DNA from: a virus
DNA: 64,000 bases
Virus record (IMG/VR): IMGVR_UViG_3300009514_000374
Coordinates: 77,008-141,007 of that record
Direction: 5' to 3' (one strand)
Below are positions 679-61,459 of this stretch, in pieces. The position numbers were made by a program, and so were the translations under genes. Positions within the stretch are counted from its first letter, which is position 1. The number at the start of each line of letters is the position of its first letter. The notes under the pieces were generated by a model, which saw nothing but the letters and a program-made list of their open reading frames with translations, searched no databases and was not told where the DNA came from.

Positions 679-1944
679 GTGAACATCGGCAATCCACTTA
701 GCTGGTCCCTTGAGGGGATGAATGCCCGCAACTTGCGGCCGGGGGATCCTCGTATCTCGTGGATGTACTACGACGACGACAATTGGGAGTTTGAGGCGCA
801 CGCGGAACGAAACGAGCGCGAAGATCGTCGTCTGATCGGGTTCCACCTATTCGTGCGGCCAAAGGGTGCTGATCTTGACGAGCGGAAACGGATCAAATTC
901 GATCTCCCCAACGAGCGCACTGTGGCGCGTACCGCTGAACAGTGGCTTCGCCAACACGGGCGCACTGCTAAGGCGCCCAAGGTACCAAAGCCAACCAAGA
1001 GGCTGACACCCAAGGCCCCTCCGAAAGCCAAGCCCGCCAAGGCGCCCAAGGCCCCGAAGCCCAAGAAGGCGCCTTCTCCCGTGCAAAAAGCTGTGCGCAC
1101 GGTTCAAAAGGGCGTTCGGCAGTTTGAACGGGGGCGGTCTAAATCACCAGCGGCGAAGGGGATCCGCACCCTCACACAGCTTGGGGAGCGTGCGCACGGT
1201 TTGCTGATGCAGCACAAGGGAGACACGGATCTCTCTATAGGAAACCCCCGTACAGGAGCGCCAATGACGCAAATCGATCCATCTCGGCTCGCCGAACGCC
1301 ATGAATGGCGGGAATTGGCGCGTGAAGCGGAGCCTTTGCTCTCCGAAGCCAAGGCGATTCTCAAGGCCGAGGGTCGAATCAAGGCCGCGAATCGGATCAA
1401 ACTCGCTGGCGAGGTCATTTTCAAAAAGGATCGCGGAGGCGACAAGGACCAGTGGGCCTACGCCGACGTGGCCCCGTCCGAGCGCATGGTGCCCGGCGAT
1501 TTCAATTTCTCGCCCAAGAACGCCAAGCCGCTCGCCAAAGTGCTTCGCGCGAGCCTGGCCGCGCTCGGGCATGTTCTGTCGGCGTACCACACCTTCGCCA
1601 AGATCAAGAGTGCGCGGGTAAGCCCTGACGGTAACCTCGGCGGCAAGGGCTACATCCAGAAAATCGCCGACATGCGGCGACAGTACATGAATGTCGTGGA
1701 AGCGTTGTCGGCTCTGACCGACACGATCTACGACGAGGTTCACGCCCCACATTGGGCTGCGGTTTCTCGCCAAGAGGACCCGCAGGACGCGGCTCAGGTG
1801 AAGGAGATGCTCGGCGACGCCGAGGAAATCCGTGAGGATCCCGAAGGGTGGGCCAAGGATCAGATCAAAGACGAATTCGGTGACGACCAAGGTGCAAAGA
1901 AAACTGCGTCCTTGGAAGCCGCCTATTGGGAAGGTGTCGTATGA
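679..1944 (+). CDS. Hypothetical head-region protein with Lys/Pro/Ala linker; probable internal start at 1264
   Basis: 421-aa ORF; KAP repeats about 970-1075; in-frame ATG 1264 preceded by AGGAG (1254-1258) and CTATAG (1235-1240). Confidence 0.6.
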   Translation: MNIGNPLSWSLEGMNARNLRPGDPRISWMYYDDDNWEFEAHAERNEREDRRLIGFHLFVRPKGADLDERKRIKFDLPNERTVARTAEQWLRQHGRTAKAPKVPKPTKRLTPKAPPKAKPAKAPKAPKPKKAPSPVQKAVRTVQKGVRQFERGRSKSPAAKGIRTLTQLGERAHGLLMQHKGDTDLSIGNPRTGAPMTQIDPSRLAERHEWRELAREAEPLLSEAKAILKAEGRIKAANRIKLAGEVIFKKDRGGDKDQWAYADVAPSERMVPGDFNFSPKNAKPLAKVLRASLAALGHVLSAYHTFAKIKSARVSPDGNLGGKGYIQKIADMRRQYMNVVEALSALTDTIYDEVHAPHWAAVSRQEDPQDAAQVKEMLGDAEEIREDPEGWAKDQIKDEFGDDQGAKKTASLEAAYWEGVV

Positions 1945-3890: not shown

Positions 3891-4220
3891 GTGTCTCTAC
3901 GCAAGAAACTGATTCGACTCGCTCACCAGAAACCTGAGCTTCGCCCTCACTTGCTGCCGCTGCTCAAGACGGCGATGTACGGCAAGGCGTGGATCACGAA
4001 TTTCAACCGGGCCACGAACATGCTGTGGGTCGGCGTGCAGGGCTACGACGGCATGGTTCGGATGTCGATCAGTGGATCGGGCATGGTCACGTCGCATGGG
4101 CGCCATCCCTCACAGGTGTCTCACAAAGCGCACCAGATCGTTTCCAAGTTTCGGAATGAAGGATTCCCTCGCATTCCACCGCACGGCCACTGGCCGCCCG
4201 AGGTGAAGCCGGACAAATGA
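3891..4220 (+). CDS. Small protein with N-terminal LRKKLIRLA..KPELR module
   Basis: 109-aa ORF; its first 28 aa recur at 6523 and 38619. Confidence 0.65.
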   Translation: MSLRKKLIRLAHQKPELRPHLLPLLKTAMYGKAWITNFNRATNMLWVGVQGYDGMVRMSISGSGMVTSHGRHPSQVSHKAHQIVSKFRNEGFPRIPPHGHWPPEVKPDK

Positions 4221-6091: not shown

Positions 6092-6640
6092 ATGCTTCCG
6101 CCGTGGGTTCGACCTCCCGATGCTTCTTGGACGGAGAAGCAGGTAGCCAAGGCGATCCTTCGGCATCTCAGTCCCGATCTGCTGCACAAGGATTGGGGGC
6201 CAGGCGGCAAGCACTACAAGCCAGGGCGGCACGAGCATTTCGGGTACTGCAACGTCGCCAGTCAAGCCTTCTACTGGCTGATGGGTGCCCGCGAGGCGGG
6301 CTACAAGGCCATGCGGGTGAAGCACGAGGGAGGCACCCATTGGTGGATCCAGTCTCCCAAAGGCAAGGTCTGGGATCTGACCAAAGAGCAATTCACGACC
6401 CCTGTGCCTTACGCCCAAGGGCGTGCGGCGGGGTTCCCCGGCCGAGGGTATTTCCCGACCCTCGCTGCCAAGAAACTGATTGAGAAGGCTCGGGCCGACC
6501 TGGAGAGACGAGGCAAAAAAGCTATGAAAGACCTACGCAAGAACCTGATCCGCCTCGCGCATTCCAAGCCCGAGCTTCGCGCTGATCTGCTTCCGTTGAT
6601 CACGGCTGCCGACCCGACCAAATCAAAGATGGTGCGCTGA
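6092..6640 (+). CDS. Transglutaminase/papain-like Cys-His-Asp protein with C-terminal KPELR module
   Basis: GYCNVASQA..THWWI..VWDLT gives a Cys-His-Asp order; C-terminal MKDLRKNLIRLAHSKPELRADLLPLI. Confidence 0.5.
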   Translation: MLPPWVRPPDASWTEKQVAKAILRHLSPDLLHKDWGPGGKHYKPGRHEHFGYCNVASQAFYWLMGAREAGYKAMRVKHEGGTHWWIQSPKGKVWDLTKEQFTTPVPYAQGRAAGFPGRGYFPTLAAKKLIEKARADLERRGKKAMKDLRKNLIRLAHSKPELRADLLPLITAADPTKSKMVR

Positions 6641-7335
6641 TGGAAACGAAGAAACTAGAACGCGACGAGCTACTGCGCCTGATCCCGAATGGGGCTAAGC
6701 GTGTTGCGGTCGTGGATGAATTGGGCAAGGAAAAGTGGCGCAAGGTTGACGAGGTTTTGGACACGGACCTGATCCAATTCAAGGCCGGGAAGCCTCGCAC
6801 GATGAAGCGCGACCCTGGTCGCAAGAAGGATCCGACCGCCGCACCGGCCGTGAGCGAGCACGTCGAGGGGTTGATCAAGGCCAAGTACAAGGCGTTGGAC
6901 GAGGACCCGCTCACGACGGTCATCGGACGTGACCCCGAGTCGATCGACGTGCTTCACGAGGTCATGCGGGGCATCGCGCAAGAGTCTGCATCGCTGGAGT
7001 TTGAGCGCAAAGAGGCCGAGCGGAAGGGCGAGGACACGCGCCAGGTTTCCGTGAGCCGTCTGCAAGCCCTCAAGGCCGTGGGCGACACCTGGATCAAGCG
7101 CGCCGAACAGCTACAGGCCAAGGGCGTGAACCTGAGCAGTCCTGAATTCAAGTTGCTGTTCGGATTCATCGTCCGCACGTTCCGTGAGGTCATGGTCGAT
7201 GCCGGCCTTCGACGTGAGAACATTGACCGGATCTTCTCCCTGCTTTCGCAACGCCTGGAGGACGAAACGTGGGAGGACGAGGCCCGTGCTGCGATGCGCG
7301 GCCAAGCCCGACCTGATGGGGTAGTGGAGCACTAA
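6640..7335 (+). CDS. Probable terminase small subunit
   Basis: 231-aa helical protein immediately upstream of the large terminase; positional inference only. Confidence 0.5.
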   Translation: METKKLERDELLRLIPNGAKRVAVVDELGKEKWRKVDEVLDTDLIQFKAGKPRTMKRDPGRKKDPTAAPAVSEHVEGLIKAKYKALDEDPLTTVIGRDPESIDVLHEVMRGIAQESASLEFERKEAERKGEDTRQVSVSRLQALKAVGDTWIKRAEQLQAKGVNLSSPEFKLLFGFIVRTFREVMVDAGLRRENIDRIFSLLSQRLEDETWEDEARAAMRGQARPDGVVEH

Positions 7336-7336
7336 G

Positions 7337-9373
7337 ATGGGCCTTGGGCTTGGGAACATTGTCCTCGATGAAGGGCGCGATGCTGACAGCACCGCCGAAA
7401 TCGCGGACATTATCACCTTCATCGAATCGGATTGGGGACTCGGCCAAACGCTGTTCCCGGTTCAGAAGGTGATCCTCAAGGCCCACTACGGCATCCCTTT
7501 GGACGACGTGCCCGAGGGTATGGACGAGGGGCAGCTTGAGCTACTGGAGCACCACAAGTTGCTCAAGCTCGCGCAGGTCGAGAACCCTCTCATTGACCCT
7601 ACGGCCAACGAGAAATACCTGATCCGCTACATCCTGCGGAAACACATCCACGTCACGGATTTCCGCAAGCATCCCATCCCTGACGTGGCCGAGTGGATGT
7701 CCGAAGCCGAGTACCTTCGCCATCTGTACGCGGAAGGTCGGTCGAACATCGCCGAGGTAATCGAGGGGCAGGAGCGCCGGGAGATGATCCTGAGCGTTGG
7801 CCGTCGCTCGGGTAAGACGACCATCTCAGCCTGCATCGCTGCCTACGAGACATACAAGCTGCTCTCCAAGGGCAACCCACAGCAGTTCTATGGTCTGCCG
7901 GATGGCAACACGATCCAGTTGATCTCGGTCGCTACGGACAAGGACCAGGCGGGTCTGCTCTACCGCGACGTTGCCAAGTATTTCGCGCAGTGTGAATTCT
8001 TCCGCACCTATCAAGCCAACGCCACGCAGTCCTTTGCTCGTTTCCAGACGCCCTCGGACATCGAGCGTCACGGCCGGTACGCGGACAATCCTAACGCTTC
8101 GGCCGCCTCGATCAACGTCACCTTCCGGTCTTGTATCGCTAAGGGACTCCGTGGTGCTGGTAACATCGTGATCATTCTTGACGAGGTTGCCCACTTTACG
8201 GACGGCGGGCAGTCCTCGGCCGACGAGGTGTACCAAGCGGTCAAGCCCTCGCTGGCTGCCTTCACTGAAAAGAACCCCTACAACAAGGCCGAGCCCATCG
8301 GACCCGTCGAAGGACGGATGATCCTGATCTCGTCGCCGCTTGGCCGTCAGGGCAAATTCTACGAGCAGTTCCAGATCGCCATGAGAGGCGGCAAGGCGTC
8401 GCAGACGATGCTCGCCATCGAGGCACCAACGTGGGAGGTCAACCCGACCATCCCGGCTGAGTTCTTTGAGTCGGAGTACGTGAAGGACACCAACATGTTC
8501 TTTACGGAGTACGGCGGCAAGTTCTCCGACCGTACTCTCGGCTGGATCGAGGACGCCCGCGACCTGCTCAACTGCGTGGACCCCAACCTCAAGCCTCGGA
8601 CCCGTGGCCTTCCCCGTGCGCCCTATTTCATCGGGCTCGACGTTGGCCTCGTGAACGACGGCACGGCGGTTGCCATCGGCCACATTGAGCAGGAGAAGAT
8701 CGTTCTCGACTACATCGATCAGATCAAGGCGGGCGAGGGCGAGTACGCCAACTACGAGCGCCTGGAATTTGAGGACGTGTCAAAATGGATCCACGACCTC
8801 TCGCGGAAATTCCTGATCGATGAAGGCATGTTCGACCAGTGGGCGGGTATTCCGTTGGAGCAGGCGTTGCTCAAGAAGGGCCTGAAACAGATCAAGGCCA
8901 CGCACTTTACTCAGGTGCTCAACAGCCAGGTCTTTCGGAATTTCAAGGACATGCTGTTCGACAGCCGCCTCGTTCTGTACGACTACACGGACGAGCAACG
9001 CGAGAAGCTGCGTGACAAAGAGGGCAAGGCACCGGACCACATGCCCTACTTGACCGAGCTATTGACGCTCCAGGCTGACTACCGGAGCAAGTACGTCGTG
9101 AACGTGTCCGCGCCGAACATCGCCGGGGCACACGACGACCTTTCCGACGCGCTTGTACGCATGGTTTGGCTCGCCAGCCAAAAGCTCTCCAACCGGGCGT
9201 ACATCGCTGGACGGGGCCGACAGACCGGGCCGAACCGGCATCGGATCTCGGCGGGCAAGCAGCGGAAACAGATCCTCGCCTCCAAGAAGGGGGGCAGCAT
9301 GGAGCAGCGGCAGCTACGTCGTGTAGGCCGGCAAGGTTTCATGCCTGTTCGTGGTGGAAGGCTCAAGGGGTGA
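7337..9373 (+). CDS. terL: Terminase large subunit
   Basis: Walker A GRRSGKT, Walker B IILDEVAHF, coupling motif ISSP, nuclease motifs GLDVG and HDDLSDA. Confidence 0.93.
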   Translation: MGLGLGNIVLDEGRDADSTAEIADIITFIESDWGLGQTLFPVQKVILKAHYGIPLDDVPEGMDEGQLELLEHHKLLKLAQVENPLIDPTANEKYLIRYILRKHIHVTDFRKHPIPDVAEWMSEAEYLRHLYAEGRSNIAEVIEGQERREMILSVGRRSGKTTISACIAAYETYKLLSKGNPQQFYGLPDGNTIQLISVATDKDQAGLLYRDVAKYFAQCEFFRTYQANATQSFARFQTPSDIERHGRYADNPNASAASINVTFRSCIAKGLRGAGNIVIILDEVAHFTDGGQSSADEVYQAVKPSLAAFTEKNPYNKAEPIGPVEGRMILISSPLGRQGKFYEQFQIAMRGGKASQTMLAIEAPTWEVNPTIPAEFFESEYVKDTNMFFTEYGGKFSDRTLGWIEDARDLLNCVDPNLKPRTRGLPRAPYFIGLDVGLVNDGTAVAIGHIEQEKIVLDYIDQIKAGEGEYANYERLEFEDVSKWIHDLSRKFLIDEGMFDQWAGIPLEQALLKKGLKQIKATHFTQVLNSQVFRNFKDMLFDSRLVLYDYTDEQREKLRDKEGKAPDHMPYLTELLTLQADYRSKYVVNVSAPNIAGAHDDLSDALVRMVWLASQKLSNRAYIAGRGRQTGPNRHRISAGKQRKQILASKKGGSMEQRQLRRVGRQGFMPVRGGRLKG

Positions 9374-9635: not shown

Positions 9636-9980
9636 ATGCCGAAAGGACCGCAGACCGAGGAACGTGCTGAGCGTCAGGCGAGGGACCAGGAGATCCGTCT
9701 TGCCGCGCAGGCACGGGAAAACATCGAGATGCACAAAGCGGCTGACGCGCATCTCGACGTGGCTGCGGCGGCGCTACGCAACGCCCTAAGATCGCTCCAG
9801 AACGTCCGTGTGGCGCGTCGTACTGCGGAAGGCCAGGTGCTCAAACGCAAGCTCAGGGCCGTTGAGCAGGCTGCTGCGGCTCTCAAGCCCATCGGAAGGG
9901 ATGCTGGCCGGGTTCGGGCGACCGGGCCGGACTATTCCGACCCCGATTTGTCTATGGGAGGGCCAGGGGTGAATGGCTAA
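9636..9980 (+). CDS. Small hypothetical coiled-coil protein
   Basis: 114-aa ORF overlapping the portal start. Confidence 0.45.
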   Translation: MPKGPQTEERAERQARDQEIRLAAQARENIEMHKAADAHLDVAAAALRNALRSLQNVRVARRTAEGQVLKRKLRAVEQAAAALKPIGRDAGRVRATGPDYSDPDLSMGGPGVNG

Positions 9981-11973
9981 GAAACGCCAAAAGCGGCGTC
10001 GAAAGACCGCTCCACGGCGCTATATCGCCGGATCGGGGGACATCCCCAAGAACGAGGACGCCCAAACGGTTGCCAGCGTGCCGGACAAGCATAAGCGGCC
10101 TCAGTTGTCGGTTGGCAAGCCGCAGCCGATCGTCCTTGGGTCGATGCGATCCAAGGTGGCGAATATCGGCGCAGGCGGATCGGGTTTCGGGGGCGGTGGG
10201 ATCGGAGGACCCGGATCGGGTAACACGGGTGCTTTCGGATCCGGGCTTGGTTCGGTTGGCGGCTCGGCGATCGGAAGCGGCGGGAATTTCTACTCGCCCG
10301 AGCTTTCGACCGATTTCCTTGAGCTACCGCAGAGCCTAGACGAGCAGCGTAACTACTTTCGGTTTTTCTACCGCGCTGACCCGTTCGTCGGGCAGGCGAT
10401 GGACATTCACCGCGAGCTTCCGCTGTCGAAGATCCGGCTTGGTCGCCCCGAGGCCAAGGACAAGGATCTTGCTCAGCAGTCGCTCGATTTCTGCAAGCGG
10501 TGGACGAAGATCGTTGGGCTGCTCCAACGGCTGTCGGAAGGGCTGCACGAGTACAACGTCATTGGCGAAACGCACTGGTTCATCGAGGACGACAACCCCG
10601 ATATGCCGGAGGACGTTCGATACGAGATCAAGAACATTCTCCACGAGGATGGCAACTTGGAGGAGACCAAGGAGCTTTGGCCGGACGCGGACGAGCGCGC
10701 CTCCGCGTGGATGAAAAAGAACTACAAGGGGTGGACGCAGGTTCGCATCCTTCCGCCTGAGCAGATTCACATGGACTCGTTCCCGATGTCGGACGAGATC
10801 CTGGTATCGCTCATTCCCGACTCCAAGACTAAGAGTGTGATCGAGCAGGCCGACCAGGGTGACCAGCGTGCGGTCAAGGTCATGGAGTCGATGCCGCCTG
10901 ACATCGTGATGGCGGTGCGGCACGGCGAGAACGTCCCGCTCAATACGGACCCAGACGCAGGGTCGTTCTACTACTACATGGCGAACAAGGTGAGCCAGTA
11001 CGAGCCGCGAGGGCACTCTCGGCTTGAACGGTGTATCCGTACCCTCGTCTACAAGGACAAGCTGCGCCAGGCGCAGACCTCCATCTCGTCGCGGCACATG
11101 ACGCCTATCCGGCTCGTGTACGCCGAGAACATGAACGAAGCGGACACCGAGGCGCTGCGTGATCAGATCGACCTCGCGCTCCAAGACCCCGACTACTCGA
11201 TCGTCACCAACTTTCAGGTGACGTGGGAGGAAATGACGCCGCAAGGGCGTCTGCTGGAGCTTTCGTCCGAGTACGACCTGATCAACCGGGAGCTTTATGC
11301 GGGTCTTGGAGTGACAGAGAGCCTGCTCTCAGGTGAGTCGAGCTACAGCGGCGATCGGATCAACCTGGAGGTGATCAACGTCCGCTACATGCTCGTCCGT
11401 GAGTTCCTACAGGATTTCGTGGAGAAGAACCTGTTTGAGCCGATGTGTCGGCGCATGGGGTTCATCGAGACGGACGATTGGGGCAACGATGTCGTCGTTT
11501 GCCCGAAGCTCTCGTTCACGAGGCTGGCCCTCCGCGACAACCAGGACGTGTACGACGCCCTGTTCAACCTCTACCAGAAGGGCTCGTTGCCGATTAGCGT
11601 GATCTACGACCTGCTCAACGTGGATGGGGAGGGTGCGACCGAGGAATTGCAACGCGATTTCGCCACGTTCAAGGACCCCACCTACAACGAGGTACTGCGT
11701 GGCCTGTACTCGCAGGCGGGGACCAAGCTCGGCGACCAGTCGAATTTCGTGGAGAAGCAGGCCGAATACCTCGGACTGGACTACAAAGAGGAAGCCGAGG
11801 GGATGCAGCGGTTCGGATCGCAACAGGCGCCCTCGCAGCCCCAAGGTCAGCCCGCCGGGATGGACGTGTTGGCTTCTCTCGTGGCTGAGCGGATCGCCGG
11901 CCAGGTCGCCGATTTGGTCGCCGACAAGATCGTGGAAAAGCTACAAAAGCGGTCTCCTGAGAGCACCGAGTAG
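9973..11973 (+). CDS. Portal protein
   Basis: 666 aa downstream of terL; FYRADPFVGQAMDIH, EYNVIGE, RGHSRLERCIRTL, LGVTESLLSG and FEPMC segments follow the portal-family order. Confidence 0.85.
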   Translation: MAKKRQKRRRKTAPRRYIAGSGDIPKNEDAQTVASVPDKHKRPQLSVGKPQPIVLGSMRSKVANIGAGGSGFGGGGIGGPGSGNTGAFGSGLGSVGGSAIGSGGNFYSPELSTDFLELPQSLDEQRNYFRFFYRADPFVGQAMDIHRELPLSKIRLGRPEAKDKDLAQQSLDFCKRWTKIVGLLQRLSEGLHEYNVIGETHWFIEDDNPDMPEDVRYEIKNILHEDGNLEETKELWPDADERASAWMKKNYKGWTQVRILPPEQIHMDSFPMSDEILVSLIPDSKTKSVIEQADQGDQRAVKVMESMPPDIVMAVRHGENVPLNTDPDAGSFYYYMANKVSQYEPRGHSRLERCIRTLVYKDKLRQAQTSISSRHMTPIRLVYAENMNEADTEALRDQIDLALQDPDYSIVTNFQVTWEEMTPQGRLLELSSEYDLINRELYAGLGVTESLLSGESSYSGDRINLEVINVRYMLVREFLQDFVEKNLFEPMCRRMGFIETDDWGNDVVVCPKLSFTRLALRDNQDVYDALFNLYQKGSLPISVIYDLLNVDGEGATEELQRDFATFKDPTYNEVLRGLYSQAGTKLGDQSNFVEKQAEYLGLDYKEEAEGMQRFGSQQAPSQPQGQPAGMDVLASLVAERIAGQVADLVADKIVEKLQKRSPESTE

Positions 11974-12023
11974 TCCCTTCGTAATCCGCTATTCGGGCTA
12001 TGGGCGTGCCTCTAGCGAAGGCT

Positions 12024-15000
12024 ATGGCCCACAAGCCCACAAAGGCGCGGACAGCGTACACCGTCGAACCCACTGAGGGTGGCGTTGTGATCTGGCCCGA
12101 GAATCGGATCGAGCAGGCGTTTATCGACACGTTTGCCGCTCGGGTTGCGGGTCAGAGGCTTGGCGTGGCGAAGGGTCACAATATCGACCTGTCCGAAGAT
12201 CCAATTCACCCGGACGAGGACGACGAGGACGAGTGGAAGGTGGACGAGGAACCGATGTCCATGGGGCATTCGGAGCTTCCCGGCGCCGAGGGCCGGACGG
12301 CGCGGGACTGGACCGCGCCAGGCAGAATCCTCGGCTTTAAGATCCGGTACGACGCCGAAAATGTAATGAGCCACCATCCCATCGTGATGGCCTTCGACGG
12401 GGAGACGGAGATTGGTTTCGTTGAGTTGGTCATGCTCGATGACCCTCCCTCTCATTGCGAGGACGAGTGGACTGAGGTTAGGGACGAGTTGGAACGACGG
12501 GGTGCCCTTGGTGTCTACACCTACGCGGTAGTGGAGTCCTGGCTGGCGGACGAGTATCACCACAACCGTATCGGGGTGGGGATGTACGAGGCGGCGATGG
12601 CTGCTCTGTCAGACCCCCAGGAGCCAGTCATCCTGGTTGCGAGTCGGTGCAGAGGCGGCCCTACGAGCCATCAAGCGAGTCGTGTGTGGGAGTCCATGGC
12701 GCGTCGCTACGTGTCCTCGGGACAGGTTGTTTCGTCCGTTCCCAAGGCCAAAGCTCGGGTGGCGAATGTGGCTCGCCGCTTCATGGCGAAGGCGACGGGC
12801 ACCCGTGCCGGCGACGGCTCCAGCGTGGGGTTGTTCATCCGCCTGCCGAAGCACCTGGCGACGCAATTCCCTGGCCTCGGAGAGAACGACTCGTCTCCAA
12901 GCCACGTCACGTTTCTCTACATCGGGGATTTCAAGGACAAGGACGAGCAGGCCCGGTTGGTCGTCACTCTGCGCGACATCCTTCGACGCTGGTGGCCCAA
13001 GTGTAAGGCAAGCCTCGGTGACCTGGAGTATTTCGACCACCCCGACAAGAACCGCCGCGTCCCGCATGTGTCCGTCGATTTCGACAAGGATCTGTCGGGG
13101 TTCAAGCAGCGGGTCATGCAGGAGCTTCGGGACGAGGGCTTTGAGGTCGGTGACAAGTTCCCCGAGTTCAAGCCACACGTCACGCTCGCGTACATGCCAG
13201 GCATGGACGGGGAGTGGGACAAGCCCGTGCCAGAAGGCTCGTGGGATGTCACTGAGATGGAGATATGGGGGATGCCCCGCGTACACACGATTCCAATTGG
13301 CAAAGCGTCGAGTCAACGAGTGGCTTCTTTGTGGCTTGAGGGGAGCACCCACGCGAAATCGGTTGCTTTGATGCGGTTCCTGTCCCGATTGGCTCAGCGT
13401 CTCGGGGTTGCCCGTCACACCTACGTCGTTGGCGGGGCCATTCGGAATTTCCTGATCGAGCAACCGATCAAGGACATCGACGTAGTGATCGACTCGGTTG
13501 CTGCGGGCAAGGATTCCGAGTGGTTTGCCGAGCAGGTTGCGCGTGCCATTCCGGCGCCAACAAACCTGACGACGAACCAGTACGGCGTTGCCATCCTGAC
13601 CGTGAAGGGGGATTGGGATCTGGACGGCGAAAGCCTCAAGGGCGAGGTGATCGAAATCGCCAACGCTCGCAAGGAGAGCTACGGCGGTGCGGAGGGTAAG
13701 GGCTACAAACCACACATGGTTGAGCCGACAACCATTGACGAGGATGTCTACCGGCGCGAATTCACGTTCAACTGCATGGGAGGGGATACTCTGATTCCCA
13801 CCAAGCGGGGTATCCTTCGCATTGATGAGATCGCGTCTCGTGAGAACGGGGACCGGCAAGATATTCATTTGACAGTGGCGGGACAGGACGGTCCTTCGGA
13901 GGCTGTGGGATGGCAGTACAGCGGGTACGCGCCGACTCTGCGGGTGACCTCCGAGTGGGGACACACCTTCACCTGCACCCACCACCACCCCGTTCTGGTT
14001 CTGCGGGGGCATGACCATGAGTGGGTTCAGGCAGATCAGCTTGCAGAGGGCGACCTGCTTTGCGTGCCCGTGCGGCAGGTGTCGAGGCGAGACCCTCTCG
14101 CTTTGGATTTGCCTGACCCGGTGCAGCCCAAGAGGGGCAGGCTCAAGGGTGCTCGGAAGCCTGAGATAATGACGCCGGAGTTGGCGTTTTTGATCGGGTG
14201 TGTGGTGGCAGAGGGTTCCAACACCCACAAGCGGGTGTCTTTCAGTAACTCCGACCCCAATCTCATTTCCCGCTACGCCGAGTGCTTCCACGCCACTTTT
14301 GGATTTCTCCCCTCCCGTAATAAGGTGGTGAGCAAAGGCTCTGTCCGTGTCCTACGGGGGGTGGAATTTGTCGCCAACCATGACGGCTACGACATTTACG
14401 CCGACAGTAAAGCAGTGGTGGGCTGGTTGGAAGACCTCGGCTTGTACTGCGGAGGCTCCAAGGACGGGAAATCCGCTTCCCATCACAAGGTTGTTCCGTG
14501 GTCGATCCTACAAGCGGACGCGCGTAGCCAGTGGGCGTTTCTTGCGGCTTATCTTGAAGGGGACGGATCTATCCGGCCGGATACCGGGCGCATCACATAC
14601 TGTTCGGCCTCCCCGAAAGTGCGTCAACAGTTGCAGGTGCTCCTGGGAGCGCACGGCATCTTGAGCAAGGTGAAGGATAGGTTTGTCTACCTTAGCGCCG
14701 TGGATTCGGCTCTCTTGTGGGAGAAGGTTCGCCCGTGGATGGTTACCAAGGGGTTCGACTACACGCGAGACAGCAAGTCCCGTAACCGTTACGGAATTCC
14801 CGCAGATCACATCCGGGGGTTTCTTGCGGGCCGTAAACAAGCTCGTTCCGTGTACGCCACGGACGAGGGCGGGCTCCGGTCCCTTCCAGACGCTCACGAG
14901 CCTGTCCGTAAGGTTCAGCGGCTTCTACACGACGCCTACGCTCGGGGAGATTTCGACGGGCTCCTGTCGAGTCTCAAGATCATTAGCGGAGACGAACACG

Positions 15001-15881
15001 CCAAGCTACAGCGGTTGTTTGACCTGGGCTACCAGTATGTCGAGGTTGCGTCAGTTGAAGATGCTGGAGATCAGGACGTATTCGACATTTCGATGGGTGA
15101 GGGGGTAGAGCCCGCTTTTGTGGCGAACGGTGTGGTGGTTCACAACACGCTCATGTGGCGGTTGCTGGACCTGACCCACGGACCCGAGAAGGCCGAGGTA
15201 ATCGACCTGACCGGCTGTGGTCGCCGGGATCTGGAGCAGGGCGTTCTCAAATGCCCGCGTGACCCCGACATCGTGTTCGCGGACGACGCGACTCGTATCC
15301 TTCGGGCGATCAAATTCACCGGCAAGTACGGATTCAAGATCCCGCCTGACCTGGCCGCCGCGATCAAGCGCAACGCTCCGAAGATGAAGCAGATGCCCTA
15401 CGAGGCGTTGAAAGACATCCTCGTGGATAACATCTTGCCCGAGCCGACCGCTCGCAAATCGCTCCAGCAGATGAAGGATCTCGGCATCCTCGATGTGCTG
15501 CACGACATGATTCAGGAGCAGAAGCCGTTTGCTTCGGCCATCGCCAAGGTGCTCGGTCGGGAGCGTCGGGTTCAGGTTCTACTCGACTGGCTGCATCTTG
15601 GCCTGCCCGCCAAGACCCCGCTGCATTTCCTTGGGGCGCATGAGCGAGTCCGAGTCCGCGAGATCACGGTTCCGATGGACGAGGACAAGGCGACTGATTG
15701 GATGCACCGGCTGATCAAGCCTCCGGTCAACAATAACGAGGTCATCGAAGCTCACTCGCTCGTTGGGCGGGACCGCGCGATGATCATGCCGCTTGCTCGC
15801 AAGCTGATTCTCGTAGACCCCGACCTCGCCTACGACGGCCGCGCCCTGACGCGCGAGGTGATTGAAAGGTGGGTGCGGTGA
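12024..15881 (+). CDS. Polyprotein: GNAT-like + 2H phosphoesterase + class II CCA/poly(A)-polymerase nucleotidyltransferase (intein-containing)
   Basis: GNAT-like WLADEYHHNRIGVGMY; two HVT motifs (12903, 13176); YVVGGAIRN, KDIDV, EDVYRREFTFN, DATRILRAIKF. Start is 12024 (GAAGG RBS) or 12000. Confidence 0.85.
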   Translation: MAHKPTKARTAYTVEPTEGGVVIWPENRIEQAFIDTFAARVAGQRLGVAKGHNIDLSEDPIHPDEDDEDEWKVDEEPMSMGHSELPGAEGRTARDWTAPGRILGFKIRYDAENVMSHHPIVMAFDGETEIGFVELVMLDDPPSHCEDEWTEVRDELERRGALGVYTYAVVESWLADEYHHNRIGVGMYEAAMAALSDPQEPVILVASRCRGGPTSHQASRVWESMARRYVSSGQVVSSVPKAKARVANVARRFMAKATGTRAGDGSSVGLFIRLPKHLATQFPGLGENDSSPSHVTFLYIGDFKDKDEQARLVVTLRDILRRWWPKCKASLGDLEYFDHPDKNRRVPHVSVDFDKDLSGFKQRVMQELRDEGFEVGDKFPEFKPHVTLAYMPGMDGEWDKPVPEGSWDVTEMEIWGMPRVHTIPIGKASSQRVASLWLEGSTHAKSVALMRFLSRLAQRLGVARHTYVVGGAIRNFLIEQPIKDIDVVIDSVAAGKDSEWFAEQVARAIPAPTNLTTNQYGVAILTVKGDWDLDGESLKGEVIEIANARKESYGGAEGKGYKPHMVEPTTIDEDVYRREFTFNCMGGDTLIPTKRGILRIDEIASRENGDRQDIHLTVAGQDGPSEAVGWQYSGYAPTLRVTSEWGHTFTCTHHHPVLVLRGHDHEWVQADQLAEGDLLCVPVRQVSRRDPLALDLPDPVQPKRGRLKGARKPEIMTPELAFLIGCVVAEGSNTHKRVSFSNSDPNLISRYAECFHATFGFLPSRNKVVSKGSVRVLRGVEFVANHDGYDIYADSKAVVGWLEDLGLYCGGSKDGKSASHHKVVPWSILQADARSQWAFLAAYLEGDGSIRPDTGRITYCSASPKVRQQLQVLLGAHGILSKVKDRFVYLSAVDSALLWEKVRPWMVTKGFDYTRDSKSRNRYGIPADHIRGFLAGRKQARSVYATDEGGLRSLPDAHEPVRKVQRLLHDAYARGDFDGLLSSLKIISGDEHAKLQRLFDLGYQYVEVASVEDAGDQDVFDISMGEGVEPAFVANGVVVHNTLMWRLLDLTHGPEKAEVIDLTGCGRRDLEQGVLKCPRDPDIVFADDATRILRAIKFTGKYGFKIPPDLAAAIKRNAPKMKQMPYEALKDILVDNILPEPTARKSLQQMKDLGILDVLHDMIQEQKPFASAIAKVLGRERRVQVLLDWLHLGLPAKTPLHFLGAHERVRVREITVPMDEDKATDWMHRLIKPPVNNNEVIEAHSLVGRDRAMIMPLARKLILVDPDLAYDGRALTREVIERWVR
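13773..15146 (+). mobile_element. Intein with LAGLIDADG homing endonuclease (458 aa)
   Basis: Begins CMGGDTLIPT; block B TCTHHHPVL; endonuclease blocks LIGCVVAEG and FLAAYLEGDG; ends FVANGVVVHN followed by Thr+1. Confidence 0.93.
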
Positions 15882-16963
15882 AGCCATCGGCAAACCGCGT
15901 CGCGTCGCTCCACCGCGCTGGCTATTTCAGCGTCGGCGACCTGATCTTGTTTGGAAAGTACAAGAACAAGAAGGGCAAGATCGTCGGGTTTGGCCGCACG
16001 GAAAAGAACGTGCCTACGGTCATTGTCGAACCCATCCCCAAGGGCCGCAAAAAGAACAAGGAGATCGGCCTGTTCAAGATCTGGCATGGCGTGCCTGAGA
16101 AGCGTGCGATGACGATGGAGGCTCGTGTAGCTCACCGCTATGCTTTTGAGCACCCAAGCGAGAAGGCTCGCCAGCAGTACCTCAAAGATCACCCCGGAGC
16201 CGATCCTAAGAAGCACCATGTCAAGGGGCCGTCGAAGCCGAGCAAGGTCAAGAGTCTCGTAGATCGGGCGCTCGCCAAGGTGAAGGGCGCGAAGGACCAC
16301 ATGGTCGCTGCGGTTCGTGCGGCCCCGGCCGAGGTTCACTCGTTCCTGTTCGACAAGGCCCATCGGAACAAGCGGACCAAGGAGCTTGCCGCGAAGCTCA
16401 AGGAGAACGCACCCAAGGCTAAGAAGGCTCTGTTCAGCGCCCTCAAGCGCGAGCTTTCGTCGTTCCCGAAAGCGGGGGCCATCCTCAAGCGGGTCGCAAC
16501 GGGAGGCAAGCTCCAAAAGGGCGATGTCAAGACCCTCTATGGTGTCGGCGTCTACATCGCGGGCACTGTTCTTGGCGCGATGTCGGGAGGGGCTGCGGGC
16601 GCGGCTTTGTTTGGGGCCTCCAAGGCGCTCCTGCACAGCCTCAGTTTGCACGCTTCGATCAAGGCAGTCAGCCATCTCGCCGACGAGGGGTTCCTTGGCT
16701 ACGAGGCGGTGGAGAGTGGCGCGATGGCGACGGGCCTGGCCGATGCGTTGCCGGTGAACACGAGTGACCTGCCTGGCTTGGGCAAGGTGTTTGACGTGCT
16801 CAAAGAGGTGGTCACAGCAGCCGACGAGAAGGACGACGAATACCTGCGCAAGTTTGTTGAGGCCATGTACGACGACATTGTGAAGCAACTGGAGCAGGGC
16901 ATCAGCGACGCTGACATTCGGGACGTTCTCGTTCACGGGGTTCAGCCAAAGGGGGCCGCATGA
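15878..16963 (+). CDS. Hypothetical head-associated protein (SH3-like N-terminus, hydrophobic helices)
   Basis: GTG overlaps the upstream TGA; FSVGDLILFGKYKNKKGKIVGFG; two R-V-A motifs. Confidence 0.6.
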   Translation: MKPSANRVASLHRAGYFSVGDLILFGKYKNKKGKIVGFGRTEKNVPTVIVEPIPKGRKKNKEIGLFKIWHGVPEKRAMTMEARVAHRYAFEHPSEKARQQYLKDHPGADPKKHHVKGPSKPSKVKSLVDRALAKVKGAKDHMVAAVRAAPAEVHSFLFDKAHRNKRTKELAAKLKENAPKAKKALFSALKRELSSFPKAGAILKRVATGGKLQKGDVKTLYGVGVYIAGTVLGAMSGGAAGAALFGASKALLHSLSLHASIKAVSHLADEGFLGYEAVESGAMATGLADALPVNTSDLPGLGKVFDVLKEVVTAADEKDDEYLRKFVEAMYDDIVKQLEQGISDADIRDVLVHGVQPKGAA

Positions 16964-28604: not shown

Positions 28605-28626
28605 CTTGTTGGAGTAAGGATCCCTA

Positions 28627-28986: not shown

Positions 28987-29002
28987 GTTCAAAAACATGG
29001 TT

Positions 29003-30544: not shown

Positions 30545-30560
30545 CTCGGTACCATCACCC

Positions 30561-38618: not shown

Positions 38619-38990
38619 ATGTCCCTACGCAAGAAGCTGATCCGACTCGCCTACGAGAAGCCCGAGCTTCGATCCGATCTGATTCCGCTGATCAAGGTCG
38701 CTGCTCGTGTCGGCGACTCCACTTGGCGATCGATGCTCAAGGATCTGGAACGAGGCAAGCCGGGCAACTGGAGCTTCGACGGCCGTGGGCTTCGGGAGTT
38801 GGAGAACTGGATCGTGGAGCAAGGTGGCAAGGCAATTTCGCCTTCGTCACGTTTCTCCGAAGGCGACCAGATCAACTACACCCTGAACGGGATCAGCCTT
38901 GAGGGTACCTCGGGAAATTTCATGGGTCCGTTCACGCAGGTTCAGGCGCAGCGCGGCATGTGGCGCGGCACTCCGTATCTCGGTGATTAA
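38619..38990 (+). CDS. Small protein with N-terminal LRKKLIRLA..KPELR module
   Basis: AGGAG RBS; first 28 aa homologous to ORF 3891. Confidence 0.65.
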   Translation: MSLRKKLIRLAYEKPELRSDLIPLIKVAARVGDSTWRSMLKDLERGKPGNWSFDGRGLRELENWIVEQGGKAISPSSRFSEGDQINYTLNGISLEGTSGNFMGPFTQVQAQRGMWRGTPYLGD

Positions 38991-42002: not shown

Positions 42003-42307
42003 AGCCTTCCGCGAAACGTATTGCTGCTCGATGGCCGGGCAAGGAAACCCCTGACCTGGAGGGCATGGGTGACGCTCTTGACGACCTGGCTGCCGACGAG
42101 CGAGAGATCGAGGTCATTGAAACGAACATCGCGGATCTCCGGCAAGCCAAGGTTGCATCGGGGAGGCGTCGTCTCGATCTGGTAAACACGGTCACGACAT
42201 CGCTGGTCGTGCTCATGGCGAACATGGGCGACGATCCTGCCTTGCGCTCGCGTTCACGGACCCTGCGCAACCAACTCAAACTGCTGCTCGGCGATGTCCA
42301 AGACTGA
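41999..42307 (+). CDS. Small protein with N-terminal MKPSAKRIAARW motif
   Basis: ATGA overlap; N-terminus parallels that of ORF 15878. Confidence 0.55.
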   Translation: MKPSAKRIAARWPGKETPDLEGMGDALDDLAADEREIEVIETNIADLRQAKVASGRRRLDLVNTVTTSLVVLMANMGDDPALRSRSRTLRNQLKLLLGDVQD

Positions 42308-42986
42308 GATCATCACGCTTGCGGGCCTGAAAGCTCGTTACCCGGAGAGCGGGCTGCGTCACTGGCTCTACGAATTTGCCGAGGACGAGATCGACATCGG
42401 TTGGTGGCACGACATCGAGTTTGCTCCGACGCACAAGGTCGAATTCTTCTTGGCTGGTTCGCGCTCCGTTGCGTTCGTGGACTATGTGCTGTTGGAGTGC
42501 CCCGAGCACCACAACACGGATCGGCGAGTGGCGTACCTGCCTCAGAACCGAGGCGAGGATCCAGAATTTGCCCGCTTCCGTGCCTCGGCCTACGCACGCA
42601 ACCGGGACACGAACAAGTGGTGGCATCTCCAGAATCACGACCCGGAATGGGTGAAGGGTCGCGTCAAGGCGACACCTGTCACGTACATGCGTGAGCTTCC
42701 CGTTGAGCTTCGGCCCAACGAGGTTGTAGGCGGTTACGTGTATTTCATCCAAGGTGCGGTCGGAGGCCCGATCAAGATCGGGTGGTCGCAGGACGTGGAC
42801 AAGCGAGTGGCCGAGCTACAGACCGGGAACCCAGAACCTCTGAGCGTGATCAACATGATTCCGGGGACCAAAAACGACGAGCGGAGGCTTCACGACCTGT
42901 TGGGGCACCTGCGCATTTCCGGGGAATGGTTCATGGATCATCCCGACGTTAGGAGATGGACCCGTGAGATCCAATTCGCGTCCTGA
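42294..42986 (+). CDS. GIY-YIG (T5orf172/MUG113-like) nuclease domain protein
   Basis: YVYFIQ..IKIGWS..KRVAELQTGNP..ERRLH..GEWF. Confidence 0.8.
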   Translation: MSKTEIITLAGLKARYPESGLRHWLYEFAEDEIDIGWWHDIEFAPTHKVEFFLAGSRSVAFVDYVLLECPEHHNTDRRVAYLPQNRGEDPEFARFRASAYARNRDTNKWWHLQNHDPEWVKGRVKATPVTYMRELPVELRPNEVVGGYVYFIQGAVGGPIKIGWSQDVDKRVAELQTGNPEPLSVINMIPGTKNDERRLHDLLGHLRISGEWFMDHPDVRRWTREIQFAS

Positions 42987-43185
42987 TCCAATTCGCGTCG
43001 CCCGCAGGTTCCTGGCTTCCCCGAAACCCTACGGCGTTGAGCCCTTGCGGACCCGCTACGACTACGGCGATAGGCTCAAGCCAGTGGGCGAGAATTCCAC
43101 CGGGCACTCCAAAGTGCCTGGCGACGAGGACGAGGACGGCGAGGACGGCGAGGACGAGGACGAGGACGAGAAATGGTCCCGTTAG
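42964..43185 (+). CDS. Small acidic protein with IRVARRF motif
   Basis: 73-aa ORF; D/E tail; start uncertain. Confidence 0.45.
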   Translation: MRSNSRPDPIRVARRFLASPKPYGVEPLRTRYDYGDRLKPVGENSTGHSKVPGDEDEDGEDGEDEDEDEKWSR

Positions 43186-58769: not shown

Positions 58770-58805
58770 TAGCCCGGCTATAGCCCGCCTGTGGTAGCGG
58801 GCTAT
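58770..58805 (+). promoter_or_regulatory. Candidate late promoter inside a start-codon-sequestering hairpin
   Basis: TAG-N5-CTATAG-N9-GGTAG; stem ATAGCCCGC/GCGGGCTAT overlaps ATG 58804. Confidence 0.6.
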
Positions 58806-59199
58806 GCGACGAGACGCCAACAGCAGCCAGGCCGGTTGGGCGCTTATTACCGAGGGTGTGACCTCGGCTCGGGTAGAGGCGCACCGTCTCCAGAAATTGA
58901 TCCAAATTGGGCTACGGCTGATCGAGCAGTCGAGCCACAAGGACCATTTCTACCAGATGGCGGGTGATCTGATCGTGGGCACGCCGAAACGGCTTGACGC
59001 CCTGATCAACGACCTGGATCGCACATCCTACGCCTTGACCAAGATCGGCGAGGACCATTTGCGCGACCGTCTTTCCATCACGGATCGCGCGCTCGTTGAC
59101 GATGGGGTGCAAAACCCGAAGCCCTTTGGAGGGAGTCGTCCTCGCACGGCGGCTGAGCGCGTCGCCCGCAGGTGGGAAGCTCGCTCTAAGGGAGGCTGA
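58804..59199 (+). CDS. Hypothetical protein with C-terminal RTAAERVARRW
   Basis: 131-aa ORF. Confidence 0.6.
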   Translation: MRRDANSSQAGWALITEGVTSARVEAHRLQKLIQIGLRLIEQSSHKDHFYQMAGDLIVGTPKRLDALINDLDRTSYALTKIGEDHLRDRLSITDRALVDDGVQNPKPFGGSRPRTAAERVARRWEARSKGG

Positions 59200-59203
59200 G
59201 AGC

Positions 59204-61459
59204 GTGTCAGCGCGTGATGTAGCTGCCCGGTGGCTCGCCTACCTTGACGACGACTCGGAGGGCCTGGACGAGCGTGAGGCGTACTCCAAGGTTCCTGGCG
59301 ACCAGTTCGGGACCAAGACCGTCGTTACCCCGAAATCGGAGAAGGGCCTCAAGACCCAGGACTACGAGTCCGAGGGCGACGAGAACAGCCCCGATGTGGC
59401 GCGGTTGCCGCAAAAGCAGCCCGAGCCACGGACCAAAGAGCGGGGCCGCGCCCTGCCCCCAAAGCATCGTGAGGATCGGGATCGCCACATTGAGCGGTTC
59501 GTACTCAACGTGCCTGATGCCGAGCCTGACTCGCGCTCGCGGACCAAGACAAAGGTTCCGATCCGATCTCCCGGCACGCCAGGGGAGCAGTACGGGCACC
59601 CGACCAAATACGACTACAACATGCCGACGCGCCGGGCTGGTTTGAAATCGGTTTTCCCACGCAAGCGCCAAAAAAACCAAGGCGGCGACGCGAAGCTCTA
59701 CCACCGGCAATACTACATCCGGCACAAATCTCCGATCACGCTTCGCATGAAGCGGAGGTACACAAAGCTCAAGGGCAAGATGCTCTACAAGCGGGACAAG
59801 AGGTACCGCAGGCAGTACCCGCTACGCTATGAGCGACGAGGCATCGGTGTCCGCACAAACAAGGAGCGATCCCGCAAGTGGCGTCGGGATCAGGTACGCA
59901 AGAAAAACCTCAACCGAGGCAAGGAGCGCGCAAAGGATCGCAAGGCATCCGAGTACGAGTGGAACCTCCCTGCGTACTTGGAAAACGGCGACCTGATGCC
60001 GATCAACATCCGTCATTTCGACGTGGATGGGCGCAACGTGGTCTACGAGGATGCGCGCGGGGGAGGCCCGCAGACGCTCTCGCTCGACCTGTTCCTTTCG
60101 CGTGTACTGCCTGAAAACGAAGACGACGTGGACGAAATTCTGGATGCCTTGGAGTGGAATTTCGGCGACGAGATTTACGACTGGCAGGACTCGACTGAGG
60201 ATAAGACGGCTGTGTACGACACGTTCGTTCGCAAGCAGGAGCCTCCGGGGCCGACCAAGACGCGACGTGACCGAGGCAAATACCACCCACACAAAAAGAA
60301 GCCGAGCGACCCGGCACATCGAGGCCAGCCGCACGCGAACCCTGATCTGATGGATCGCGGGTTCACGCAGCCAGCCGTCGAGCAGCAGTCGGGCTCGGCG
60401 AAGGTGATCCCTGACCGCAACAACTCGACGGGCGACCTGTCATGGCGCAACAAGGACCGGCCGTGGGATGACCGAGGCTACAAGGTCGCAGGCATGACGG
60501 TGAAATGGGGGAGTGTGCCTCCGCAGTGGGTCTACGCGACAAAGATGCCCGGCTACGAAACCCTGGCGATCGAGGTCGAAGGCGGAGGTCTTTATGCGGA
60601 GGCAACCGCCGTTCGTCACTGCAAGGCGGACCTCGCATCGCTGAGTGAACAAGTGGGGCAGCCCTTGAAAGCTCTGGTCGTGCAAAAGACGTTCTTGCCA
60701 GAGGGAATGAGAGGACAGGGCCTCGGTAAAAAGCTCTACGAAACGGCTGCCCGAGAAGCGGCGAAAAAGGGGTACGCCCTAGCCCCCAACGATTGCTGGC
60801 ACGGCGGCCCTGGTTCGGGAATGACGAGCCCCGATGCTCGCAGAGTATGGGCGAGCCTGCGCAGACAATTCGTTTCGGAAGGGTTGTTGCTGTGGGGCGG
60901 ACGCTCGCCTCGGGCTGCGATGCACCGACAAGCCGACACCATCGCCATGATCCGTCGCCGTTGTGAGCGAGCAATCTTGGAGCGATCCAAAAAATACAAG
61001 CCGGTGCTCGCCAAGTTTGAGCGCCGCCGCCTGACCTGGCGGTGGGATGTGGGTGACTGGAAAGTGAGCCTTCGGGCGATGCCCAAGACTGGCGCCAAGG
61101 CGACCAACATCACGGAGATGGACGTGAGGGTGTCCTGTTCGTGCCCCTACTATCGCTGGCAGGGGCCGGAGCATTGGGGCAAGGAGAACGGTTGGCAGTA
61201 TGGCCGCCCCCGAGGCACAGCGACGTTCCCCAAGATCAAGGACCCCCGGTTCCGCCATGCGGCCTGCAAGCACGCGGTAGCCGTTTTTGATTGGATCCGG
61301 GGCAACAAGCTCAAGATCCCCGAGGATATGCGGCGTCTGGGGGCGAGCCGGTATTTGGCCGATAGTTTGCACACCTATGAGATGGAGCCTTTCCAGGCAG
61401 ATCCAGCAATTCCAGAGCCCTCGCGCGTGGCGCGACGGTTCTTGGTCAAGAGGAAATAG
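59204..61459 (+). CDS. Multi-domain protein: basic region + GNAT-like + SWIM-like Zn finger
   Basis: GTG 59204 after GGAGG; LPEGMRGQGLGKKLY..SPDARRVW; CSCP..CKH. Confidence 0.7.
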   Translation: MSARDVAARWLAYLDDDSEGLDEREAYSKVPGDQFGTKTVVTPKSEKGLKTQDYESEGDENSPDVARLPQKQPEPRTKERGRALPPKHREDRDRHIERFVLNVPDAEPDSRSRTKTKVPIRSPGTPGEQYGHPTKYDYNMPTRRAGLKSVFPRKRQKNQGGDAKLYHRQYYIRHKSPITLRMKRRYTKLKGKMLYKRDKRYRRQYPLRYERRGIGVRTNKERSRKWRRDQVRKKNLNRGKERAKDRKASEYEWNLPAYLENGDLMPINIRHFDVDGRNVVYEDARGGGPQTLSLDLFLSRVLPENEDDVDEILDALEWNFGDEIYDWQDSTEDKTAVYDTFVRKQEPPGPTKTRRDRGKYHPHKKKPSDPAHRGQPHANPDLMDRGFTQPAVEQQSGSAKVIPDRNNSTGDLSWRNKDRPWDDRGYKVAGMTVKWGSVPPQWVYATKMPGYETLAIEVEGGGLYAEATAVRHCKADLASLSEQVGQPLKALVVQKTFLPEGMRGQGLGKKLYETAAREAAKKGYALAPNDCWHGGPGSGMTSPDARRVWASLRRQFVSEGLLLWGGRSPRAAMHRQADTIAMIRRRCERAILERSKKYKPVLAKFERRRLTWRWDVGDWKVSLRAMPKTGAKATNITEMDVRVSCSCPYYRWQGPEHWGKENGWQYGRPRGTATFPKIKDPRFRHAACKHAVAVFDWIRGNKLKIPEDMRRLGASRYLADSLHTYEMEPFQADPAIPEPSRVARRFLVKRK

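Follow-up and report, generated by a model that had tools for sequence, protein, structure and literature searches.

Encapsulin cargo-loading peptides attach to the interior side of a shell protein with the HK97 fold, prohead proteases act inside the procapsid (as in T4, HK97 and the herpesviruses), and the herpesvirus proteases cut between Ala and Ser. In phage T4, the capsid-targeting sequence (CTS), a short peptide on IPI-III and Alt, attaches to the core of the prohead, from which a gp21-type protease later cleaves it (Mullaney and Black; summarised in PMC7411985), and the first 30 residues of P1 DarB suffice as a capsid-targeting signal at the N-terminus (PMC9024508). Polyvalent proteins, which are multi-enzyme chains with 2H, nucleotidyltransferase, GNAT, ART-like, peptidase and ParB-like domains, are chains for which packaging and injection have been predicted (Iyer et al. 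2017, PMC5512222); in the text searched, that paper deals with domain architectures, and a short peptide common to the chains as an address or joint is not mentioned. Here we describe a peptide of ~14 residues, hereafter the tag, that recurs on unrelated proteins encoded in a 64-kb window of viral DNA, the final 64 kb of the 141-kb IMG/VR record IMGVR_UViG_3300009514_000374 (positions 77,008 to 141,007), and assess it as a candidate signal for loading enzymes into the procapsid.

The record is ~30% complete by CheckV and has a GC content of ~0.61, with genes almost all on the + strand, as are the tag sites and the portal, protease, scaffold and capsid genes located below; gene calls comprised 157 proteins (43,231 amino acids). 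Two tag-bearing relatives were fetched whole, G003 (497 kb, GC 0.58) and G005 (376 kb, GC 0.45), with median protein identities to this record of 51% and 40%, respectively. We further sampled the capsid-gene flanks of 34 relatives (GC 0.33–0.65), ~90 kb of Tunturiibacter phage Tunturi_5 (GC 0.59) and the 41-kb head region of Bacillus phage G.

An earlier note made from the DNA letters had listed 15 peptides of the form R-[VI]-A-x-[RL]-[FWHY], and all 15 were present in our gene calls where it had placed them, 12 as strong sites and three, at 1285, 12141 and 21254, as weak ones. Across 50 pooled sites the logo was [RK]-P-S-A-x-R-V-A-x-R-[YFHW]-[LM]-A-[RK], for which we spell the consensus K-P-S-A-x-R-V-A-x-R-Y-L-A-R. 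Counting the basic core residue as position 0, Ala occupied position +2 in 50 of 50 sites and Arg or Lys position 0 in 43 (86%), the core Val was present in 90% and the aromatic residue in 96%, while position +3 was Ala, Ser or Gly in 27 (54%) and Arg in 14. Five more positions are conserved, namely Ser-Ala at −3/−2, Arg at +4, the aromatic at +5 and Leu or Met at +6. Searches of the literature turned up no paper on this motif, in line with the earlier note's statement that no description was known.

The tag was far more frequent than composition predicts. The pattern R[VI]A.[RL][FWHY] matched 13 times in the 141-kb record versus 0.46 ± 0.65 times in 1000 per-protein shuffles (maximum 4), which was the comparison that the earlier note had proposed, and the relaxed 7-mer [RK][VI]A..[FWHY][LM] matched 8, 15 and 20 times versus 0.5, 1.8 and 1.3 expected in the three genomes. 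The tripeptide R-[VIL]-A was over-represented, and a position matrix set ~18–19 sites of the record off from background by a clear gap. Trained here, this matrix found 22 sites of at least 12 bits in G003 (4 in reversed and 2 in shuffled sequences) and 10 in G005 (0 and 0), giving ~10–22 scored sites per complete genome, and it recovered the tag in 30 of the 34 capsid-gene flanks (57 matches vs. 5 in the control). No matches were found in the ~90 kb of Tunturi_5 or the 41 kb of phage G.

Copies concentrated at protein ends. In this record and the two whole relatives, 13 of 18, 14 of 22 and 6 of 10 sites lay within 15 residues of an end, where 11–12% would be expected (binomial p = 2e-9, 2e-8 and 3e-4). 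The placement at termini and domain boundaries that had been proposed thus stands for termini and linkers, with the amendment that most copies are extreme N-termini: 10 of the 18 scored sites of this record have a T4-type N-terminal placement within the first 11 residues, three are within 12 residues of the C-terminus, and the remainder are in linkers, chiefly of the giant proteins with several enzyme domains whose genes lie between those of portal and prohead protease. N-terminal position is independent of start-codon choice in four tag genes, because the frame is closed 0–3 codons 5′ of their starts. The same amino acid was encoded by the same codon in 25% of comparisons between copies, approximately as genome codon usage predicts, and synonymous codons were mixed to the predicted degree at the conserved Arg, Val and Ala. 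This scrambling places the signal, and the selection on it, at the peptide rather than the DNA level, as had been supposed. An origin from a DNA repeat was considered and rejected, since the extra DNA matches were acidic Asp/Glu-rich low-complexity runs and the tag codons are scrambled. The proteome is Arg/Ala-rich and the pattern was picked after inspection of the data, both of which would favor chance, a composition effect or a DNA-level repeat without peptide function; against these stand the shuffle counts, the terminal bias, the codon scrambling, the recovery of the tag in independent genomes over GC contents of 33–65%, and its lack in the sampled regions of Tunturi_5, at GC 0.59, and phage G. 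An artefact, whether of GC or of Arg/Ala content, is essentially excluded.

The same positional data bear on whether the tag marks protein ends for degradation, such that an AAA+ protease of phage or host would recognise it and time the removal of phage proteins. Degrons are found at either terminus of unrelated proteins, and phage G, a distant relative, encodes ClpX and ClpP (PMC12484599). Internal linker copies cannot serve as terminal degrons, however, and the C-terminal copies stop 3–11 residues short of the stop codon, with variable tails. We also know of no ClpX or ssrA-type signal that the tag resembles, and we regard this explanation as very improbable.

The heaviest carriers are encoded within the head genes, which are ordered as terminase (7337–9373), portal, the tag-bearing proteins 12000–15881, 15869–16963 and 16960–20928, a 186-residue protein, protease, scaffold, a 220-residue protein and capsid protein. 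The 1293-residue protein 12000–15881 combines a 2H phosphoesterase domain, in which both H-x-T motifs are intact, with a nucleotidyltransferase of the poly(A)/CCA type and an intein. The tag core NVARRF (12765–12782) is at residue 256, in the linker directly before the 2H domain, and aligns with the N-terminal tag of a G003 orthologue. The core RVASLW (13317–13334) is at residue 440, in the joint between the 2H (residues 299–400) and nucleotidyltransferase (474–593) domains; L071, L074 and L076 likewise have a 2H domain followed by a tag, with RVAARY or RVATHW at this joint, and in L074 and L076 the stretch after it matches the topoisomerase IB protein at its N-terminus. The nucleotidyltransferase is split by a LAGLIDADG intein (13800–15150; Pfam Intein_splicing, residues 606–1049; LAGLIDADG_3, 846–894).

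The next two carriers each have two tags. In the 364-residue protein 15869–16963, whose frame is closed one codon 5′ of its start, RVASLH (15896–15913) is at residue 10 of the N-terminus, MGAVKPSANRVASLH, and aligns with an internal site of a 927-residue protein encoded elsewhere in G003; RVAHRY (16124–16141), internal at residue 86, aligns with KVARMY of the G003 protein 455522–458551. The 1322-residue protein 16960–20928 is a topoisomerase IB with a long tail. It carries RIAALH (16972–16989) at residue 5, where its G003 orthologue has QVAALY at residue 8, and RVARRF (17989–18006) at residue 344, past the catalytic core (42–245), a site occupied by LNYKHVAALY in L014, L017 and G003. A homology of the tail to an annotated ejection protein was considered and dropped, the tail having no similarity to the ‘DNA ejection protein’ of Tunturi_5.

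Further carriers are encoded away from the head genes. TVAARH (37920–37937) and RIAARW (42017–42034) are both at residue 7, of the 223-residue protein 37902–38573 and the 102-residue protein 41999–42307, respectively, and RVARRF (42994–43011) is at residue 11 of the 73-residue protein 42964–43185, with an acidic tail after the tag. RVARRW (59158–59175) ends seven residues before the end of the 131-residue protein 58804–59199, and the G003 orthologue has SAERVARRW at the equivalent place. The adjoining 751-residue protein 59204–61459 has DVAARW (59216–59233) at residue 5 and RVARRF (61424–61441) five residues before its end; the corresponding termini of its G003 orthologue are MADPKRVAARYL and SARRVAAKRLGKHI. 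Where orthologues exist, then, the tag is kept at the equivalent place despite changes in architecture and diverged flanks, and one domain may have it at the N-terminus in one genome and, following a fusion, internally in another; most of the small carriers of this record have no homologue in G003.

Of the three weak sites, RLAERH (1285–1302; matrix score 1.6) is a degenerate copy at a domain joint of the protein 679–1944, residues 196–392 of which match the G005 protein 11335–11958, which begins with the tag NPRAVAERYM. RVAEAF (21254–21271; weak score of 5.9) is tag-like and lies inside the conserved 186-residue protein 20933–21493, directly 5′ of the protease gene; its orthologues, some of them fused to the upstream giant protein, have RVAEAY, RVASAYM or RVASKYM. 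RVAGQR (12141–12158; score 4.7) is a look-alike that misses the aromatic residue and is probably not a tag.

These carriers bear out the claim of a modular, protein-level tag on unrelated enzymes. Among the enzymes that had been named, the 2H phosphoesterase, nucleotidyltransferase and topoisomerase IB were confirmed by Pfam; the GNAT match, a weak one in protein 59204–61459, was below threshold. Outside the window, carriers also included a C39-like peptidase and an alpha/beta hydrolase, each by a marginal Pfam match, and weak carrier matches included a C70-like peptidase. About half of the carriers are encoded far from structural genes, and none of the recognised replication or transcription proteins was seen to have a tag. 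Between portal and protease, chains with at least two conflict-type enzyme domains were found, an architecture that has been argued to mark virion-delivered polyvalent proteins (PMC5512222).

We next consider the head proteins themselves. The portal protein (9973–11973; phrog_16240, E = 1e-26) forms the upstream border of the cargo polyprotein block. The portal product of G003 (447520–450942, L136) has 1140 residues versus 666 here, which suggests that it is fused to additional C-terminal domains. The 484-residue prohead protease (21494–22948; phrog_18299), the C-terminal part of which is a helical domain, has VRTAS at residues 24–28. In an alignment of 25 relatives the conserved N-terminal peptide closes with the sequence [VI]-R-[VTI]-A-[SA]-G, where R25 is invariant and A27 is conserved in at least 90%, and a further conserved K-x-A, in a K-A-A-[KR] site, lies just past the catalytic domain. 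The AlphaFold2 (AF2) model shows residues 1–33 and 266–341 as disordered and the catalytic domain with a predicted local distance difference test (pLDDT) of 84–96, such that the two K/R-x-A sites lie in disordered segments on either side of a confident catalytic domain. The best fold matches of the model were T4 gp21 (5JBL; probability 0.98, E = 2e-3) and herpesvirus proteases, with weak E-values but mutually consistent top matches.

The acidic scaffold protein (22970–24262) contains seven K-x-A-[SGA] sites versus 0.9 expected; no genome-wide K-x-A enrichment was seen, and the scaffold alone stood out. In all relatives seen, K/R-x-A-S, which is K-T-A-S here, occurs ~25–30 residues before a conserved C-terminal tail, and the N-domain consensus includes KAAKCIRIA. 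The scaffold end (24150–24262) as a whole is conserved as K-T-A-S-S-E-[IV]-x-[DE]-L-x-x-L-W-x-x-x-P-D-V-S-x-x-F. We rejected the tail as a copy of the tag, because its acidic consensus, E-[IV]-S-D-L-S-K-L-W-E-S, runs in another register.

The HK97-fold major capsid protein (25131–26003; 290 residues; phrog_2522, E = 2e-49) is a homologue of phage G gp27 (PDB 6WKK). It is 92–95% identical across the clade, being 94.5% identical to that of G003 and 91.7% to that of G005, where the next-best protein identities are 78% and 65%. Relatives of it were encoded on at least 560 viral contigs of up to 619 kb, with 91–95% identity in the best 80 of these. Below this group, identity falls directly to ~50% or less for the next full-length relatives in a library clustered at 50% identity, those at ~50% being on contigs of 2–5 kb only, and the nearest cultured relatives are Tunturi_5 (48%) and phage G (38%). 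The capsid protein is unusually frozen. Directly 3′ of its gene, an 830-residue protein (26112–28604) has LAGLIDADG homing endonuclease, HNH and DNA methyltransferase PHROG matches.

The tag had been reported as lacking from the major capsid protein, terminase, RNase HII, phosphatase and fibre proteins, and this holds apart from one look-alike, RVARVYM in the capsid protein (25662–25685; RVARVFM in G005), the only tag-like heptad in core structural proteins. It aligns with VVTKIVM in a conserved capsid segment of gp27, which we take to be a beta-strand, and we treat the likeness as a coincidence. The full tag is thus absent from scaffold, capsid protein and protease, with only the core of three to four residues being common to them. 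This core, R-V-A-[SA], matches a site that is conserved in the disordered peptide at the N-terminus of the protease and fits the K/R-x-A-S of the scaffold. With Ala as P1, the 50 of 50 tags with Ala and the 43 of 50 with Arg or Lys agree with the scaffold and protease sites. Given these conserved sites in protease and scaffold, R-V-A-[A/S/R], the core of the tag, resembles a site for the prohead protease, and its identity with the N-terminal site of the protease would tie the tag to events inside the procapsid. Since the protease acts there, conserved sites for it also argue that the carriers are inside the head.

The shared core could also mean that the tag is a processing site and nothing else, a preferred prohead protease substrate at which polyproteins are split, with terminal copies representing split-gene joints or propeptide trimming and head entry depending on something else. 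Internal copies lie exactly at domain borders, gene fusions and splits occur at tags, and neighboring genes end and start with one (e.g. 58804/59204 here and 393702/394197 in G003), all as this would predict. Nevertheless, the five additional conserved positions are missing from the protease and scaffold sites, so that the tag exceeds a minimal cut site, and ~60–70% of copies are so near a protein end (within 15 residues) that cutting there would be almost without effect unless the peptide served a role of its own. Terminal copies are also conserved in orthologues across a clade with 40–50% median protein identity, and small stand-alone carriers would still need to enter the procapsid to meet the protease. 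We therefore consider a pure processing site rather doubtful, although such a site would still disclose the cleavage specificity of a gp21/assemblin-type protease from a group of uncultured phages.

The predicted structure of the tag bears on a role in binding. In an AF2 model of residues 230–470 of protein 12000–15881, the 2H domain had a pLDDT of 80–93 and both tags beside it were predicted as helices with a pLDDT of ~40, a picture that would fit a free helix that folds upon binding. The mean hydrophobic moment of the tag was moderately raised (0.49 vs. 0.30 for random 11-mers). At exposed termini and in linkers between domains, the tag is thus predicted to form a free, short helix of amphipathic character. 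Such a helix, in such positions and on many unrelated carriers, has the general marks of a hub motif, and the distance of about half of the carriers from structural genes could indicate a hub other than the capsid, for example a phage or host chaperone, a polymerase, a clamp-like factor or an assembly factory, that gathers enzymes at one cellular site. This is less easily reconciled with the concentration of the heaviest carriers between portal and protease, the protease-type core, and the lack of the tag on recognised replication and transcription proteins. Moreover, the substrates of the carriers (DNA, tRNA ends, cyclic phosphates and proteins) are unrelated, which makes a single cellular workplace unlikely, and on balance we find a hub outside the capsid improbable.

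We assign a probability of about 0.5 to the reading that the tag is a docking helix with a built-in protease site, which would load cargo into the procapsid and then release it. A core of the protease-site type, additional conserved flanks, a strong preference for protein ends, and carriage by unrelated enzymes and by polyproteins encoded beside head genes are best explained by a tag that, like the T4 CTS, would load its carrier and then be cut. During procapsid assembly the helix would dock its carrier on a conserved internal component, for which the capsid protein is the best candidate and the protease or scaffold are alternatives, such that single enzymes and multi-enzyme polyproteins would be enclosed. 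The gp21/assemblin-like protease would then cut after the Ala of the central R-V-A-x, thereby destroying the dock, splitting the polyproteins and freeing enzymes to exit with the DNA. The existence of the tag, its modularity, position, conservation in the clade, protein-level selection, predicted helix and genomic context, and the match of its core to the protease's own conserved site are directly supported; we infer that carriers dock, which receptor they use, and that they are cut, packaged and ejected. As receptor, the capsid protein is the natural candidate given its 92–95% identity versus median protein identities of 40–51%, which is a correlation only.

A broader version, in which a single programmable code for capsid loading would be common to hundreds of huge phages related to phage G, with the tag docking on the inner face of the capsid protein and the protease cutting through this dock so that dozens of enzymes become available for injection, is a speculative extension that we regard as unlikely. 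It would explain why a 290-residue capsid protein is frozen at 92–95% identity in proteomes at 40–50%.

Several observations weigh against loading followed by release. A search for a cultured phage bearing the tag, or for a virion proteome of one, found none; many carriers have no assigned function and none is homologous to a proven virion protein. Arg at position +3 in 14 of 50 tags is perhaps unsuited to an Ala-Ser-type protease. A cut within the tag would remove just 6–12 residues from many proteins, which fits processing or a relic as well, and nothing in the T4 system corresponds to the C-terminal and internal copies. Only weak signs of joint regulation with structural genes were seen in this genome, and the promoter motif was not seen in G003.

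That promoter-like intergenic motif, C-TATAG-(C/G)C, occurs 23–108 nt before tagged or structural operons (window positions 37620, 41306, 58778 and 62654), and a second one, TGGCGTAA, occurs 14–28 nt before untagged metabolism-type genes (29007, 29272 and 34307). We did not use a late-promoter link to the tag as support, because numbers were small (5/10 vs. 0/7) and the motif was not recovered in G003. A gene for a sigma-70 region 4 protein is located just upstream of the head operon (genome positions 72249–72860) and its product is 78% identical in G003. Outside the window, genome positions 7006–9134 (L007) contain long gene-free gaps with tRNA-like ends (GGTTCGATTCC... CCA), which are probably a tRNA cluster.

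Other recurrent peptides were also found. A second, longer tag, L-R-x-x-L-I-R-L-A-H-x-x-P-E-L-R-x-x-L-L-P-L-L, had 11 copies in eight proteins of this record versus 0.02 expected, at N-termini, at C-termini or between domains (window positions 3912–3980, 6548–6620 and 38640–38710; genome positions 26542–31900, 41548–42600 and 74700–75446, L008, L009 and L010), with one copy in G003 and none in G005. The LIRLA core of this longer tag is similar to TLIRLAKLLS, the C-tail that is conserved in the prohead protease; we rejected this C-tail as a free tail, since the model places it in a confident helix (pLDDT 79–94) of the folded C-terminal domain. In G005, the 25-residue N-terminal tag MRRSASEVIRNLExRIARLERQA occurs on 15 otherwise different proteins with 0 expected (L117–L135; e.g. 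genes at 18471, 33971, 141783 and 185067), and looks like a lineage-specific address class in place of the LIRLAH-type tag (tag A). Under a shared loading code, both longer tags would be further address classes.

If the tag does load cargo, it would be the most widely used capsid-loading signal yet seen, with one short peptide working at either end or within a chain on ~10–20 or more proteins per genome, and conserved over a very large clade of uncultured 370–620-kb phages. The injected arsenal could then be read directly from sequence, with peptidases, an acetyltransferase, ART-like enzymes, 2H phosphoesterase, tRNA nucleotidyltransferase and topoisomerase IB among its members. There would also be a testable reason for the extreme conservation of the capsid protein, and a compact tag for packing foreign proteins into HK97-type shells.

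The concept of such a signal is already known from the T4 CTS, the P1 DarB signal (PMC9024508), the SPN3US propeptides (PMC7411985), the encapsulin loading peptides and the polyvalent proteins (PMC5512222). Novel aspects here are the tag sequence itself, a placement that extends to linkers as well as either protein end, the predicted cut site within the tag, the number of carriers and the conservation over a very large uncultured clade. The parallels to T4 and encapsulins drawn in the earlier note hold as functional analogies, while neither consensus sequence is present in the tag. As in T4, a short peptide is common to unrelated proteins, those of T4 including ADP-ribosyltransferase-like enzymes, and the prohead protease is, by the fold match of its model, of the gp21 fold family. 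Unlike the T4 CTS, the tag has no likeness to MKTYQEFIAE and its logo no Glu-terminated L/I-x-E cut site, the putative cut falls in the middle of the tag rather than at the peptide end, and copies are also found at C-termini, in linkers, in tandem and on far more carriers. The resemblance to P1 DarB is that of an N-terminal peptide by which an HK97-type head would receive a foreign reporter or a large anti-defence enzyme, yet the DarB signal belongs to one protein with no described consensus, whereas one consensus is found here on many proteins clade-wide. Encapsulin loading peptides are likewise short, terminal and on diverse cargo, and the shell protein here is small, at 290 residues, and lacks a delta domain; those peptides are Gly- and hydrophobic-rich, whereas the tag is basic and predicted to be helical, and this is a true tailed phage with terminase, portal, scaffold, protease and tail-fibre genes. 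The tag shares with herpesvirus assemblin sites (V/L-x-Ala followed by Ser) an Ala at the presumed P1, followed in 27 of 50 tags by a small residue, the protease model matches the herpesvirus fold, and the scaffold K/R-x-A-S precedes a conserved C-terminal tail, which in herpesviruses is capsid-binding; in contrast to the herpesvirus sites, P3 is Arg or Lys here, and the tag adds Ser-Ala upstream and Arg-aromatic-Leu/Met downstream. Finally, as with polyvalent proteins, multi-enzyme chains adjoin the head genes, but the tag here is also on single-domain proteins scattered over the genome.

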